From the NCBI GenBank assembly GCA_023267195.1, contig JAHFNT010000002.1, positions 23,830 to 87,829 on the forward strand: a stretch of 64,000 nt of DNA, given 5' to 3'. How positions within the stretch are numbered: the stretch's first letter is position 1; the number at the start of each line of letters is the position of its first letter. The notes below the pieces were generated by a model. That model had not been told where the DNA came from. It made no database searches and saw only the letters and a program-made list of their open reading frames with translations. This document shows positions 45,100 through 52,001 of this stretch, in pieces. This DNA is from Candidatus Nomurabacteria bacterium. Lineage in GTDB: Bacteria; Patescibacteriota; Minisyncoccia; Phycocordibacterales; UBA9973. A program made the position numbers and the translations under genes.

Positions 45100-46119
45100 T
45101 TAATTTCCGTTGTGCCAAAGTTCGGTTACCGAATCGCCGTTGTGCAAGTTGTCTATAATCTTGGCAAGCAGTTTAGAAGTTTCGATGATTTCAAGTTTTT
45201 TTATTTTTTTCTTGTTTTCCTCTGAAATACAAGAATCACTAAACCAAACAGCCTTGAAAGGCGCCTGGTTTAGATTTTCCACTGCTTCGCCAGAAAGTAT
45301 AGCGTGGGTCGCAGTAAAATATACATCTTTGGCACCATTTTCTTTTAAAGTTTTTAGCGCTTTTACTGCGGTACCGCAAGTGTCTGCCATATCGTCTGGA
45401 ATAATGCAGTTGAAACCTTTCGCCTCCCCGATTACTTCCATGACTTCATTATGATTAATTTTTTTGGGGTCGCGGAATTTATTTATGATAATAATATTTT
45501 CTGGAATTCCTAACTGTTGAGCTAGTTTTCGGCAAGCAGGCGCGGCACCCAAGTCTGGCGCCACGATTTTAAACTTTTCCAAATTAAATTTTTTTGAACG
45601 TATATGTTTTAAAAGAAGATCATTTACGTTTACATCGACAACAGGGATAGTCAGCGGATGCGCATTATAGCTTGAAGGATTATGCAGATGTAAAACTACA
45701 ATCCGATGCGCTCCAGCCATTTGTAAACGCATTGGAACTTTTTGGGAAAGCACAGGTTCTCGATGATTTGAAGGTTTGTCCTGTCTCGCATATGGCAGAC
45801 AAGGCATCACGACAGTAACACGGGCAGGCTCGCCTTGTTTCAAAGCATAAACCAGAGATTCGCATTCATCTAAGTCATTTGCCAATATTTCTTTATTTCC
45901 AAAACGTGGCTGAATAATCAAATAAACATCGCGGTCTCGGACCGACTCGGTATGATGGACTAAATATTCTCCATTTTTAAATTCTTTATAATTAACCGGC
46001 GCCAGCTTATTTTTTAAAAGTTTAGCAACTTTCAGCGCTAGAGTTTGATTGATTCCGTTCGGACTTCCGTATAACTTCAAAGGGTAAGGGTTCAAGTTTA
46101 TCTGATTTCCACTTGTCAT
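45100..46119 (-). CDS. prs: Ribose-phosphate pyrophosphokinase (PRPP synthetase), divergent
   Basis: Tandem PRTase-type domains and the PRPP-binding loop IIPDDMADTCGT. Confidence 0.75.
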   Translation of the reverse strand: MTSGNQINLNPYPLKLYGSPNGINQTLALKVAKLLKNKLAPVNYKEFKNGEYLVHHTESVRDRDVYLIIQPRFGNKEILANDLDECESLVYALKQGEPARVTVVMPCLPYARQDKPSNHREPVLSQKVPMRLQMAGAHRIVVLHLHNPSSYNAHPLTIPVVDVNVNDLLLKHIRSKKFNLEKFKIVAPDLGAAPACRKLAQQLGIPENIIIINKFRDPKKINHNEVMEVIGEAKGFNCIIPDDMADTCGTAVKALKTLKENGAKDVYFTATHAILSGEAVENLNQAPFKAVWFSDSCISEENKKKIKKLEIIETSKLLAKIIDNLHNGDSVTELWHNGN

Positions 46120-46151
46120 ATTAAAAATACTCTAGCATAAAAAAGAAAAAA

Positions 46152-46185
46152 TGGCGACCGGCTTCCGTGAAAGGAAGCTGGCCGC
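46152..46185 (-). terminator. Rho-independent terminator for a minus-strand transcript (GGCGACCGGCUUCC-GUGAAA-GGAAGCUGGCCGCC stem-loop plus U-tract)
   Basis: A 14-bp stem with one mismatch, followed on the minus strand by AUUUUUUCUUUUUU (the plus-strand A-run at 46139-46150), 20 nt upstream of the prs start codon. Coordinates in 46120-46620 may be off by 1 nt relative to the ORF track. Confidence 0.6.
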
Positions 46186-46189
46186 CAAT

Positions 46190-46620
46190 ACCCAGATAGT
46201 GCTGGACGCACAGCGGGGGGCCAGTTCCGCCGATCCGTGGCCCTACCTAAACGGCCAGTAGTGGTACACTCTTCCACCACCTCCCTTTAAGTGTTTTACT
46301 CTTTATGCTCGAATGCGTCGAGCGGCGCTAACTGGGAGAAACGCAGTTCTTGGTATCGAGTTCTACCCTAAGAGAAGCCTCGTCCCTGTTCCCTGTGGGG
46401 TAGCCAAATGTTCCAGTTACCACATTACGACAATCCACACAGGAAAGCATGATGATCCCGGCATGAAGCTTCTCGAGGTAAACCGACTTATTTACGCAAG
46501 AATGTACGCGAGTTTTGGTTTCCACCATTGGTCTACTCCTTTTTCTATTGTCGACGAACTAGGTGTTCTCGCGAAACGAGAACACCAGCCTTCGGTGGCT
46601 GGTGTTTGAGTTGTAAGTTA
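46190..46620 (-). ncRNA. GC-rich (~55-60%) structured transcript unit of unknown identity; contains a 66-aa Cys-containing ORF with an SD (46328..46528, minus strand)
   Basis: GC content is far above the ~35% background. The 5' region carries two partly overlapping stem-loops (46561-46585 GGUGUUCUCG-CGAAA-CGAGAACACC and 46582-46603 CACCAGCC-UUCGGU-GGCUGGUG). AAGGAG lies 8 nt before the ATG of the 66-aa ORF (MVETKTRVHSCVNKS...LSCVDCRN...). A GC-rich 3' region of about 140 nt ends in the terminator at 46152-46185. No RNase P, tmRNA, SRP or tRNA signature motifs were found. Confidence 0.3.
46561..46603 (-). promoter_or_regulatory. Pair of mutually overlapping stem-loops in the 5' leader of the GC-rich minus-strand unit
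   Basis: Stem-loop 1 (46561-46585) and stem-loop 2 (46582-46603) share the 4 nt CACC, so they form alternative, mutually exclusive structures. Both lie upstream of the SD/ATG of the 66-aa ORF. Confidence 0.3.
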
Positions 46621-46779
46621 TGTTTTTGAGTATTTTTACAGCGCAAATATCAGCCTTCGAAGACCTTTGGTAAAGCTGAAAAAGAAATAACTATTTGCTT
46701 GTATGTTGTTTTTATTCACAAGCACAGTATAGCGTATATTTTAAAAAAGACAAATTTAATTTGTGGATAAATTTAAAAT

Positions 46780-46813
46780 CGGCGACCGGTCCCATGAAAG
46801 AAACCAGTCGCCG
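46780..46813 (-). terminator. Second minus-strand terminator hairpin, sequence-related to the one at 46152-46185 (CGGCGACCGG-UCCCAUGAAAGAAA-CCAGUCGCCG)
   Basis: A 10-bp GC-rich stem followed on the minus strand by AUUUUAAAUUUA. Both hairpins share the GGCGACCGG arm and a GAAAG loop core. Confidence 0.5.
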
Positions 46814-46885
46814 ATGCGATGCGGTGGGCCAAGCCGCTTTTACCCCTCCGGCCCTAACGCCACTCAGGATCCCAAAGCATGCGGA

Positions 46886-47062
46886 TCACCTCCCTTCGAT
46901 CCTTGCCTCCGATCCCTTACCAGATAGTCTGAGCTCAGAACGCAGTCTTCTGTTTTCTTCCTTGAGTTGATCAATCTCATTCAACAACTTGTCGATTGCG
47001 TTTCTGAGTCTTTCTCCTTCGGTTTCGCTATTGATCCTGGCAAGCGAAAAGGAATCCCACAT
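46886..47062 (-). CDS. Small coiled-coil protein (58 aa) with strong Shine-Dalgarno sequence, inside GC-rich island B
   Basis: Minus strand: GGAGGTGAAATC-ATG, encoding MWDSFSLARINSETEGERLRNAIDKLLNEIDQLKEENRRLRSELRLSGKGSEARIEGR*. It is absent from the ORF track because it is under 60 aa. Heptad leucines are present, and a GC-rich 3'UTR follows, then the terminator at 46780-46813. Confidence 0.4.
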   Translation of the reverse strand: MWDSFSLARINSETEGERLRNAIDKLLNEIDQLKEENRRLRSELRLSGKGSEARIEGR

Positions 47063-47330
47063 GATTTCACCTCCAAAGAACGAAAATCAGCACTTCGATT
47101 GCGCTGTTTAATTAATTCCTTGTTTGGTTCGGTAGAAAAAAGAAATCAACAGAATAGCGCAAAAGCGGATGGTTTTGCGCCCCACCAAGATTTCGTTAAT
47201 GTATGTATTTTGTAGTTCTGTTTCATATTCATATTCTTTCACACCAATACTCTTGTATCTATGTACTAGTACATGATAACATGATAAAAAAATAATGCAA
47301 ATAATGCATGTGGATAAGTGGGATAAGAAA

Positions 47331-47651
47331 TTATTTACCCAACTTTTTGAACATTAAATTAAAACCGCCATTTTTATTGCGTAATTCACGAGATCCGCGA
47401 GTGACCGTACTAATACCGAGCCCTAAATCCCCCGCTACGGATCTATGGGTCTCTCCTTTATTTAATTTTTTAACTATTTGCCACCTTAAAGCCATAGTTT
47501 CAAATTCTGCGGGAGTAAAAATATCTATCAAGAACTCTGCCATTAAATTTTTATCACCATCAATTTTAGAAAAAACTTCTATTAATTCTTTCTTATATTC
47601 TGAGATTTTTTTGTTAACGTGCCTCATGTTTTGAACTTTAAAAATAATCAA
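47331..47651 (-). CDS. TrpR/YerC-YecD-family (Trp-repressor-like) DNA-binding protein
   Basis: FTPAEFETMALRWQIVKKLNKGETHRSVAGDLGLGISTVTRGSRELRN fits the TrpR-like helix-turn-helix pattern. The gene overlaps the 3' end of trpS. Confidence 0.7.
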   Translation of the reverse strand: MIIFKVQNMRHVNKKISEYKKELIEVFSKIDGDKNLMAEFLIDIFTPAEFETMALRWQIVKKLNKGETHRSVAGDLGLGISTVTRGSRELRNKNGGFNLMFKKLGK

Positions 47652-51492: not shown

Positions 51493-51541
51493 TAACTTTT
51501 TGTTGTTAAATTTAGCATATGCTTAAATTCACAACCGTAAA

Positions 51542-51619
51542 CTAAAAAACGGGCTCGGAATTTCCTGGGCCCGCTTGCGTGTAGATGATGCCCCCTCCGC
51601 ACCACCCACACGCAAGCGG
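51542..51619 (-). terminator. Terminator region for the minus-strand GC-rich small gene (12-bp stem CCGCUUGCGUGU/ACACGCAAGCGG with a large loop, then GC clamp and U6)
   Basis: The stem arms lie at 51571-51582 and 51608-51619. Downstream on the minus strand is CGGGCCCAGGAAAUUCCGAGCCCG followed by UUUUUU (the plus-strand A-run at 51544-51549). Confidence 0.45.
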
Positions 51620-51625
51620 TAGTGC

Positions 51626-51904
51626 TTAACCCTTGTTGATCCATCCTTTGCCGGGAATGGATCGTTCGAGGGCATGCACCGTGACAGATATTGCCACCCC
51701 CAAACCCACCCCCAAACAAATCGAGACTAGGAGCATGAACCCACCGGGCCCTCCGTGGAGATCTCTGTACCGCTCAGGTATGTCGTCGTAGTAACGAGGG
51801 TTCTTTTGTTCCCACCGTTGTTCCCACTGATCGACACACACGAACAAGTACGCACCTGCGACCAGTATACTGAGACAGGCCAGGACAACAACGATTCTCT
51901 TCAT
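51626..51904 (-). CDS. GC-rich small membrane protein (about 92 aa, 2 TM), hypothetical; possibly horizontally acquired
   Basis: MKRIVVVLACLSILVAGAYLFVCVDQWEQRWEQKNPRYYDDIPERYRDLHGGPGGFMLLVSICLGVGLGVAISVTVH... About 55% GC against the ~35% background. An AGAGG SD sits upstream of the ATG at 51904, and the ORF-track start at 51949 is a further in-frame upstream candidate. Confidence 0.45.
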   Translation of the reverse strand: MKRIVVVLACLSILVAGAYLFVCVDQWEQRWEQKNPRYYDDIPERYRDLHGGPGGFMLLVSICLGVGLGVAISVTVHALERSIPGKGWINKG

Positions 51905-52001
51905 ACAAACCTCTGAACGGATTGTATCATACAAAAACACAAAAGTCAATAGTATCGAATCCTTATTTTATAAGGTTCTTTTGATTGTGCTAAAAAACAT
52001 T

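Follow-up and report, generated by a model that had tools for sequence, protein, structure and literature searches.

In γ-proteobacteria, pheL-pheA and pheM-pheST, as well as trpL, hisL, leuL, ilvL and thrL, follow a common scheme of ribosome-mediated transcription attenuation: a short leader open reading frame (ORF) contains an internal run of regulatory codons (Phe in pheL and pheM), an intrinsic terminator precedes the first structural gene, and the leader RNA has 1:2, 2:3 and 3:4 pairings that exclude one another, the regulatory codons being located by segment 1 and the stop codon placed such that a terminating ribosome masks segment 2 (PMC3082878 for pheL-pheA). In mycobacteria, leaderless translation from RTG, i.e. 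from GTG or ATG, is established (PMC4633059), and so are leaderless short ORFs that act as amino-acid sensors (bioRxiv 10.1101/834739). In the polycysteine ORFs among these, stalling on a run of one amino acid remodels the downstream RNA, and the many copies with a common signal are termed a "ribulon" (Canestrari et al., bioRxiv 10.1101/834739). Here we analyse a 64,000-nt stretch of a Candidatus Nomurabacteria genome (contig JAHFNT010000002.1, positions 23,830 to 87,829; referred to as the window, with position 1 being its first letter), and in particular a GC-rich region next to prs (46139-46620), which we call island A. The host is a Patescibacteria (candidate phyla radiation, CPR) genome of the Paceibacterota/Nomurabacteria kind, and in the library covered by our full-text searches no paper was found that describes leader-peptide attenuation for CPR/Patescibacteria. 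Island A is probably a self-contained transcription unit on the minus strand, extending from about 46719 to 46140, i.e. a small-gene cassette whose expression is likely to depend on transcription attenuation by ribosomes, of the trpL/pheL type.

The part of the unit that is shared with other genomes is an AT-rich leader of about 140 nt (46720-46580). Comparison with 18 related genomes (Prs 69-83% identical) showed that this leader is strongly conserved and present in nine of them, in 13 copies and often twice in tandem, with each copy preceding a different GC-rich sequence and a terminator. The leader pattern moreover matches at least 120 metagenome contigs. A profile derived from the copies found first supported nearly all of these, and 108 distinct copies were obtained altogether. 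The GC-rich body of the island, on the other hand, has no homologue in the relatives and none was found by blastn against 170 related loci.

The conserved sequence of the leader can be assigned to helices that exclude each other. The consensus fold of the first 13 copies (RNAalifold) contains a long helix, 46661-46636 with 46616-46591, i.e. segment 2 with segment 3, which competes with the terminator and which we refer to as the antiterminator. The conserved "spacer" sequences are therefore explained by this helix; a promoter or a Rho site, which had been considered for the conserved spacer, was rejected, as the spacer is the inner half of the antiterminator helix. In a MAFFT alignment of 97 distinct leader copies 93.8% of the cells of the antiterminator (21 pairs) and 92.1% of those of the terminator (10 pairs) are paired. 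Cells in which both partners have changed number 62 versus 31 in shuffled data for the antiterminator and 25 versus 6.6 for the terminator, values that were reached in 0 of 500 shuffles in either case, and sliding the partner columns by 1-3 positions lowers pairing to 31-54% and 12-61%, respectively. As alignment columns 71-80 are common to both helices, antiterminator and terminator cannot coexist. The attenuator terminator hairpin with its T-rich tail is found in 98 of 98 copies, with a median free energy of -16.8 kcal/mol. A further pairing holds segment 2 in the untranslated leader of the window, where the minimum-energy fold (z score -4.85) engages it with 46703-46692 (segment 1a) and 46679-46672 (segment 1b). 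In the family, 79% of 100 copies pair at least 6 of 13 segment-2 bases upstream, with a mean z score of -2.4 versus shuffled upstream sequence. Unlike the antiterminator and the terminator, which were counted in the alignment, this anti-antiterminator was assessed from folding energies only. Overall, the leader has three mutually exclusive pairings with compensatory changes.

The original prediction, made from the sequence of the window, had described two alternative stem-loops at the 5′ end of the island behind a putative AT-rich promoter zone (46610-46780). Both stem-loops are real and overlap (46606-46581 and 46586-46562, with GGTGTT common to both), and a CTCG...CGRG hairpin 3′ of the attenuator terminator is visible in many other aligned copies; the decisive alternative pairing, however, is the longer helix, which extends into the supposed promoter zone. 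This zone is mostly transcribed leader with a 27-codon ORF, and only 46753-46726 is promoter-like.

The leader ORF is conserved as a reading frame and not only as a sequence. In the family it starts with GTG or ATG after a TATAAT-like -10 element and lacks a Shine-Dalgarno (SD) sequence, which is the geometry of leaderless mRNAs. The distance between -10 and RTG is 6 nt in 45 of the 66 copies with a defined promoter, and an extended -10 TG occurs in 53 of 105. The promoter of the window (-10 element, 6 nt, GTG, no SD) fits an RTG at the transcript start, suggesting that transcription would begin at the GTG of the leader ORF or adjoining it. When the start was set from promoter geometry alone in the 66 promoter-defined copies, i.e. 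with no open frame being demanded, frame 0 was open up to the conserved stop codon in 51 copies and the other two frames in 9 and 8, and in the promoter-only test the third frame was read through in zero copies. A leader ORF of 16-37 codons (median 26) is present in all of the first 13 copies and in 101 of the 108. Among these 101, the stop codon lies at one of two fixed places in segment 2 (TAA in 76 and TGA in 24), with one copy being off by 1 base; the start codon is GTG in 62 and ATG in 39, a choice of start that favoured these two codons. Judged by its sequence, the window possesses all the structural features that define leader-peptide transcription attenuators.

Based on this anatomy we propose the following mechanism. 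Transcription would start about 7 nt past the -10 hexamer TATACT, at or next to the GTG, and ribosomes would load at the 5′ end in the absence of an SD to make the leader peptide of 27 codons with its Y-F-F-F-S-F stretch; the final nine codons of the ORF double as segment 2, i.e. as the 5′ strand of the 21-bp antiterminator. When no ribosome is present, segments 1a and 1b would hold segment 2, so that the 3:4 terminator forms and ends the transcript at about 140 nt. If Phe-tRNA is ample, the ribosome would reach the stop codon and mask segment 2, and the terminator would form as well. If, however, Phe-tRNA is scarce, the ribosome would stall on the Phe codons (46686-46672) and thereby cover segment 1b; segment 2, once freed, could pair with segment 3, the terminator would be blocked and RNA polymerase would enter the cargo. 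The read-through output would be an SD-led small Cys/His protein of 66 residues, followed by a 3′ module and a strong terminator.

As to the signal, the leader peptides (n=101) contain codon runs for Phe in 46 copies, Ile in 13, Leu in 9, Val in 3, Cys in 1, and Asn or Ser in 2, and within runs of one amino acid synonymous codons are mixed, the leader peptides being encoded with 226 TTT and 101 TTC. Elsewhere the leader precedes Phe/Tyr genes. In loci L168 and L113 an FFF leader is placed immediately before an ilvE-type aminotransferase, an ORF resembling PDT and a 504-508-aa protein that fuses prephenate dehydrogenase and prephenate dehydratase domains, and in L088 an FFF leader lies upstream of prephenate dehydratase; these three loci match the pheL-pheA arrangement (PMC3082878). 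Phe specificity is supported because the cargo in all three consists of Phe pathway genes, and the signal read by the window leader may well be the supply of Phe-tRNA. The regulated genes match the pathway only in these three loci, the window cargo being an orphan 66-aa ORF. A tendency of cargo proteins to avoid Phe was considered and rejected, small cargo proteins having 4.3% Phe versus 4.4% in four neighbouring window genes.

Several observations weigh against an amino-acid-sensing attenuator at this locus. The U-tract of the attenuator terminator is interrupted in the window (UUCUCGUUUC), the sequences compared are related, so that the shuffle controls overstate significance to some extent, and the conservation of the leader peptide (IQAN, LRRLIFAL) is largely explained by RNA pairing and not by peptide function. 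Moreover, 27 of the 101 leaders lack a clear amino-acid run, and the F, I, L and V runs all consist of NUU/NUC codons, i.e. a requirement for U-rich RNA could mimic sensing, and in copies without enzyme cargo a codon preference at the RNA level may operate instead of sensing. Finally, the cargo of the window has neither a link to Phe metabolism nor a close homologue, and the general view of CPR bacteria is that amino-acid biosynthesis is missing from them. The features of the unit and of the neighbouring TrpR-family gene are compiled in Table 1.

Table 1. Coordinates of the features of island A and of the gene upstream of it (window positions).
Feature	Position	Strand	Remarks
-35-like hexamer TTGTCT	46748-46753	-	consensus scan TTGTCT-16 nt-TATACT
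-10 hexamer TATACT	46726-46731	-	6 nt upstream of leader-ORF GTG
Leader ORF, 27 codons + stop, no SD	46636-46719	-	VNKNNIQANSYFFFSFTKGLRRLIFAL; GTG start; TAA stop 46638-46636
Segment 1a (codons I-Q-A-N)	46692-46703	-	pairs with ATTTGCGCTGTA of segment 2 in untranslated leader; minimum-energy fold
Regulatory codons TAT TTC TTT TTC AGC TTT (Y F F F S F)	46672-46689	-	read from sequence
Segment 1b CAGCTTTA	46672-46679	-	directly after FFF codons; pairs with GAAGGCTG of segment 2; anti-antiterminator
Segment 2 (TTCGAAGGCTG ATA TTTGCGCTGTAA)	46636-46661	-	antiterminator 5′ strand; last 9 leader codons including stop
Segment 3 (TTACAACTCAAA CAC CAGCCACCGAA)	46591-46616	-	antiterminator 3′ strand; 3′ half is terminator 5′ arm and loop
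Attenuator terminator	46570-46606	-	arms 46606-46597/46590-46581, then U-rich tail GUUCUCGUUUC
Second hairpin GGTGTTCTCG/CGAGAACACC	46562-46586	-	overlaps terminator 3′ arm and U-tract
SD AAGGAG	46536-46541	-	7 nt before ATG (46528) of 66-aa ORF
66-aa ORF (H9-x-C11, C30-x2-C33, C62)	46328-46528	-	predicted orphan cargo
Second, very strong SD AAAGGGAGGTGG	46277-46288	-	start of 3′ module
Mini-ORF GTG TAC CAC TAC TGG CCG TTT AGG TAG	46243-46269	-	8 codons, MYHYWPFR, aromatic-rich
Conserved motif	46210-46243	-	hairpin GGGCCA (46243-46238)/TGGCCC (46223-46218), then CCCGCTG; adjoins mini-ORF stop
Unit terminator	46139-46187	-	15-pair stem 46187-46152 and U-tract 46151-46139
TrpR-family gene	47331-47651	-	preceded by trpS

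Compared with the pheL-type attenuators, the leader of island A shows no similarity in sequence or to covariance models, and no curated Rfam leader family was matched. Its ORF differs in lacking an SD, in its start about 7 nt past the -10 element and in its CPR host. The genes regulated by the family, including that of the window, are mostly tiny orphan proteins and not biosynthetic enzymes, and Ile, Leu, Val, Cys and, in a related leader, Trp sub-types occur on one scaffold and in tandem at one hotspot. With the mycobacterial Cys ribulon the family would share a short sensor ORF with which a leaderless mRNA begins, the remodelling of downstream RNA by ribosomes stalled on a codon run, and the occurrence of many copies with one signal. 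The window differs from it in using Phe codons instead of polycysteine, Cys runs being limited to about 3 members of the family, and in acting on an intrinsic terminator rather than on a ribosome-binding site that is unmasked.

The body of the unit carries the 66-aa ORF, the translation of which is plausible. Pfam yielded nothing for the 66-, 54- and 98-aa ORFs, and a word-indexed homologue search with the 66-aa ORF found none. The ORF is weakly colinear with 86-87-aa ORFs located under the same leader in L078 and L147 (27% identity, pairwise BLASTP 3e-7), the common positions being H9, G24, C30-x2-C33 and C62. A profile search with these weak relatives returned only 3 proteins in 5.8 billion clusters, none of them annotated, and the AlphaFold2 model, which used a 4-sequence alignment, had a predicted local distance difference test (pLDDT) score of 50.7, too poor for a fold search. 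The frame of the ORF stays open for 25 codons past its TAG (RRSTHSSIKSKTLKGRWWKSVPLLAV up to the next stop, 46251-46327, minus strand) and ends 2 nt before the stop codon of the mini-ORF, a position that roughly matches the end of the main ORF in L157; this extension could mark a longer ORF truncated by a nonsense codon, or could be chance (about 1 in 3 at this GC).

The composition of the unit is uneven. With 50.6% GC, 46139-46620 is the top value in the 64 kb (window mean 38.0%, standard deviation 3.6%, 482-nt windows), but only the 3′ ~180 nt (46150-46330) reach 58%, whereas the ORF has 48% and the 5′ part 47%, so that the excess reported earlier was confirmed, although not at the level of 55-60% claimed for all of 46150-46620. 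Other details of the original prediction were likewise right in kind and needed adjustment in number: the AAGGAG and the ATG of the 66-aa ORF are present, yet spaced by 7 nt and not by 8; the ORF exists, but instead of two CxxC-like pairs it has one CxxC (C30/C33) plus H9-x-C11 and C62; the GC-rich region 3′ of the ORF measures about 176 nt rather than 140; and the strong terminator before prs has a stem of 15 pairs (14 bp had been given) and leaves a gap of 19 nt (20 had been given) to the prs ATG. Folding of the minus strand was more favourable than that of dinucleotide shuffles, with z scores of -5.6 (502 nt), -3.9 (3′ 192 nt) and -2.5 (ORF alone). A search with all Rfam families on both strands, proposed with that prediction, returned no known family, with zero matches at the gathering score across the window; within 45900-47400 there was no match at E<=0.1, and at E<=10 only noise (microRNA, small nucleolar RNA and long non-coding RNA models), the weak matches including zero leader, T-box or riboswitch families. 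ARAGORN detected neither tRNA nor tmRNA in the window. Thus, the earlier failure to match RNase P, tmRNA, signal recognition particle (SRP) RNA or tRNA was borne out, island A giving no match to RNase P RNA, tmRNA, SRP RNA, 6S RNA or tRNA with Rfam covariance models and ARAGORN. A resemblance of GGGCC...TGGCCCACCG to a T-box or a tRNA acceptor has no match to any model.

That the whole island is a structural non-coding RNA, as had also been considered, is not supported, its body being conserved in no relative and shared bodies changing in a protein-like manner. A 96-codon cargo present in L008 and L011 differs at 19, 8 and 49 sites in codon positions 1, 2 and 3, respectively, and as these differences are protein-like, cassette bodies can be true genes. 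A protein-like substitution pattern, which had been named as the result that would speak against an RNA, is therefore found in cassette bodies, whereas the leader shows compensatory, RNA-like change. The GC richness of the island is due to the cargo and the two terminators and not to one large structured RNA.

Leader copies cluster at one syntenic site, between a trpR-like gene (after trpS) and prs or aspS. In the window, island A lies within a 1.2-kb gap with the TrpR-family gene upstream and prs downstream, and the gene after prs on the minus strand is aspS. The trpR-like to prs/aspS interval holds one to several tandem leader-plus-cargo cassettes (L006, L007, L009, L014, L061, L078, L080, L161 and others), and the cargo differs even between genomes with Prs about 80% identical. 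Most cargos of the family are orphans of 45-130 aa; the commonest (about 14 of 78) are unannotated small LPCGC Cys/His proteins with the motif W-F...L-x-V-P...L-P-C-G-C...W-x-H-x2-C, and 10 small cargo proteins encoded at other loci were not assigned to any family by Pfam. In most copies the 300-nt stretch that follows the leader has about 45-57% GC, compared with 38% in the window and about 39% in prs. In the two tandem leaders of L006 (2614-2713 and 3180-3276), the antiterminator 5′ strand of either copy is complementary at every base to the 3′ strand of its neighbour. Within a copy the two strands contain one A-C mismatch or one G-U pair, and recombination between the tandem leaders may have left this trace.

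These features are reminiscent of phage morons and integron-like cassettes, i.e. of small genes with deviant composition and their own promoter and terminator that vary at one site, and the island could be a recently acquired, mobile or exchangeable cassette whose GC excess reflects foreign origin and not function. The variation of cargo between close relatives at the single site trpS-trpR-like ... prs/aspS, the promoter and terminator of each cassette, the tandem occurrence and the post-leader GC of about 45-57% in most copies would all agree with this idea. Nevertheless, we regard it as possible rather than probable as a replacement for attenuation: no integrase or transposase is seen adjoining the island, flanking repeats were not found, and cassette ends share no inverted-repeat family beyond the terminators; integrase and attC site were not seen, although no search aimed at either was made. 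Moreover, the leader pattern has 0 matches in 2.9 million viral contigs, where a 15-mer of the 3′ module gave 50 matches, all lacking the surrounding module and thus rejected as chance. What is conserved here is a regulatory 5′ leader and not a recombination site, and this AT-rich leader is conserved vertically with the host lineage. Turnover would explain the variability of the unit but not its function, i.e. the idea complements the attenuator, our best explanation, and does not compete with it.

The 3′ module, i.e. the last ~150 nt of the unit, occurs twice in the window (islands A and B, see below) and in about 8 other distinct loci, with the consensus TAGGGCY-N11-19-GCGACTTGGCCCACCGCA. 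Its SD is nearly fully complementary to AAGGGAGGTGAT, which we take to be the 3′ end of the 16S ribosomal RNA. In other copies mini-ORFs of 4-13 codons read MLWDPEWR, MRSLWDPW, MLWDSEVEIDWWR, MGLWDWWL, MWGMVWFR, MWGMV and MYEY, each followed by a stop codon, whereas the L114 copy has neither SD nor mini-ORF. The stem of the module is almost invariant over 8 copies and hence provides no covariation evidence either way; the final terminator is variable but strong, and its arms covary between loci. In L094 and L106 the module alone lies between leader and terminator. Control of the final terminator by the mini-ORF, i.e. a second attenuator, is not supported, as the terminator remained intact in 9 of 9 copies when the 15 nt after the stop codon were blocked.

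Given this conservation, the functional product might be an RNA: the island or its last ~150 nt (46290-46140) would be a 3′-derived small regulatory RNA, consisting of a 5′ hairpin, an exposed UGGCCCaCCGCA and the terminator hairpin, with the ORFs being incidental or, in a dual-function RNA, secondary. Conservation of the module sequence in about 10 distinct loci, including twice in the window, its ability to be the sole regulated output (L094, L106), a core that is nearly invariant without covariation, as expected of a recognition or seed sequence, and the folding of the 3′ 192 nt (z -3.9) all point in this direction. We nonetheless consider it unlikely, since an Rfam match is absent, a very strong SD and an aromatic-rich ORF with recurring LWDxxW-type motifs (except in L114) point to translation, the module is found in only about 10 of about 100 cassettes, and the remainder of the island is not conserved; it would, again, complement the attenuator rather than replace it. 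Of the dual-function RNA considered originally, only these last ~150 nt hold a conserved RNA/mini-ORF module that could be an RNA product. The 3′ module may give rise to a translated micro-peptide or to a 3′-derived small RNA, and we have little confidence in any specific function for it or for the 66-aa ORF.

Much less probable still is a riboswitch or protein-binding attenuator, in which the short ORF is untranslated and a ligand or an RNA-binding protein sets the choice between the helices. A terminator/antiterminator pair alone does resemble the expression platforms of riboswitches, a factor could bind to the apical region, which is conserved, rich in A and C and poor in G, and a TrpR-family gene is nearby. 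TrpR-family proteins, however, bind DNA, and the leader lacks an aptamer-like multi-helix core, as the three alternative helices account for all conserved sequence. An untranslated ORF would also be at odds with a frame kept far above the other two, with stop codons that lie, all but one, at two fixed sites, with a start codon fixed 6 nt from the -10 element, with same-amino-acid runs in mixed synonymous codons and with FFF leaders preceding Phe pathway genes.

Finally, prs adjoins island A, the terminator of which ends 19 nt short of the prs ATG, and in L009 prs is likewise abutted by this 3′ module. Even so, the idea that prs is regulated by the island as its long structured 5′ leader or attenuator is hardly tenable, as the strong terminator intervenes and is not predicted to open with a ribosome at the mini-ORF stop, prs has its own extended -10 with an equivalent in relatives, several close relatives have prs without any leader, and the leader elsewhere precedes aspS, other cassettes or aromatic amino-acid operons. 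This extended -10, TGCTAGAGT at 46137-46129, lies 9 nt before the ATG (46119), with no SD, and an equivalent -10 precedes prs in the relatives; from this geometry near-leaderless mRNAs may be common in the lineage. Island A is thus not a prs leader: the original prediction was correct in suggesting an attenuator but not in naming prs as its target, the attenuator (46719-46570) being situated at the 5′ end of the island, where it would control the island's own ORFs.

A second cassette, island B (46780-47300, minus strand), has a leader that is related to, but distinct from, that of island A. Its short ORF MKQNYKIHTLTKSWWGAKPSAFALFC (ATG at 47226, ending at a stop codon) contains a TGG TGG tandem that does not vary across 5 loci, its hairpins 47181-47156 and 47106-47088 can be drawn as 1:2, 2:3 and 3:4 segments, and downstream a 58-aa coiled-coil ORF (47062-46886) is followed by the same 3′ module with the mini-ORF MLWDPEWR. 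Island B looks like the Trp-type counterpart of island A. Upstream of it, a perfect palindrome, ATGTACTAGTACAT (47261-47274), overlaps the -10 element of a TTTGCA-17-TATCAT promoter (47301-47273); the palindrome is kept in 3 of 4 aligned related loci (L007, L016 and, with two paired changes, L013). It contains GTACTAGT, which we take to be a half-site of the E. coli trp operator, and the TrpR-family gene (47651-47331) lies immediately upstream of the promoter that bears it; the palindrome is a putative operator. A likeness to the trp control of E. coli (TrpR operator plus trpL) concerns island B and not island A, and comprises the operator-like palindrome over the promoter, the tandem Trp codons, the hairpins that can be drawn as four segments and the adjoining TrpR-family gene and trpS; island B differs in that no trp biosynthetic genes lie downstream and that the TrpR-family protein scores 42 versus an NCBIfam TrpR cut-off of 67 bits. 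Another GC-rich small gene of the window, at 51540-51915 (minus strand), encodes a predicted two-helix membrane protein of ~92 aa (beginning MKRIVVVLACLSILVAGAYLF) and has its own TGATACAAT promoter, SD and terminator, without a leader of the island A family.

For annotation, these findings imply that GC-rich islands in such AT-rich genomes can be small regulated genes and not structural RNAs. The 140-nt leader may be used as a sequence tag for finding more cassettes, and dozens of unannotated micro-proteins as well as the mini-ORF/RNA module are thereby flagged as regulated outputs. CPR/Patescibacteria have tiny genomes and little is known of their gene regulation; the family described here would represent a ribosome-sensed amino-acid switch on a leaderless mRNA. 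More tentatively, and as a speculation that we hold to be possible but not yet the likelier case, the family might form a Patescibacteria-wide ribosome-read regulon, in which one leaderless scaffold has diversified into Phe, Ile, Leu, Val, Cys and, in the related leader, Trp sensors that drive fast-turnover, GC-rich, Cys/Arg-rich micro-proteins and the Trp-rich mini-ORF/RNA module at the trpS/trpR-like/prs/aspS hotspot. If this were true, host-dependent organisms would possess a direct sensor of the host's amino-acid supply that triggers effectors, and the 3′ module would act as a new regulator, be it a peptide or an RNA. The family thus raises the testable question of what an episymbiont with little biosynthesis switches on when a given charged tRNA runs low.

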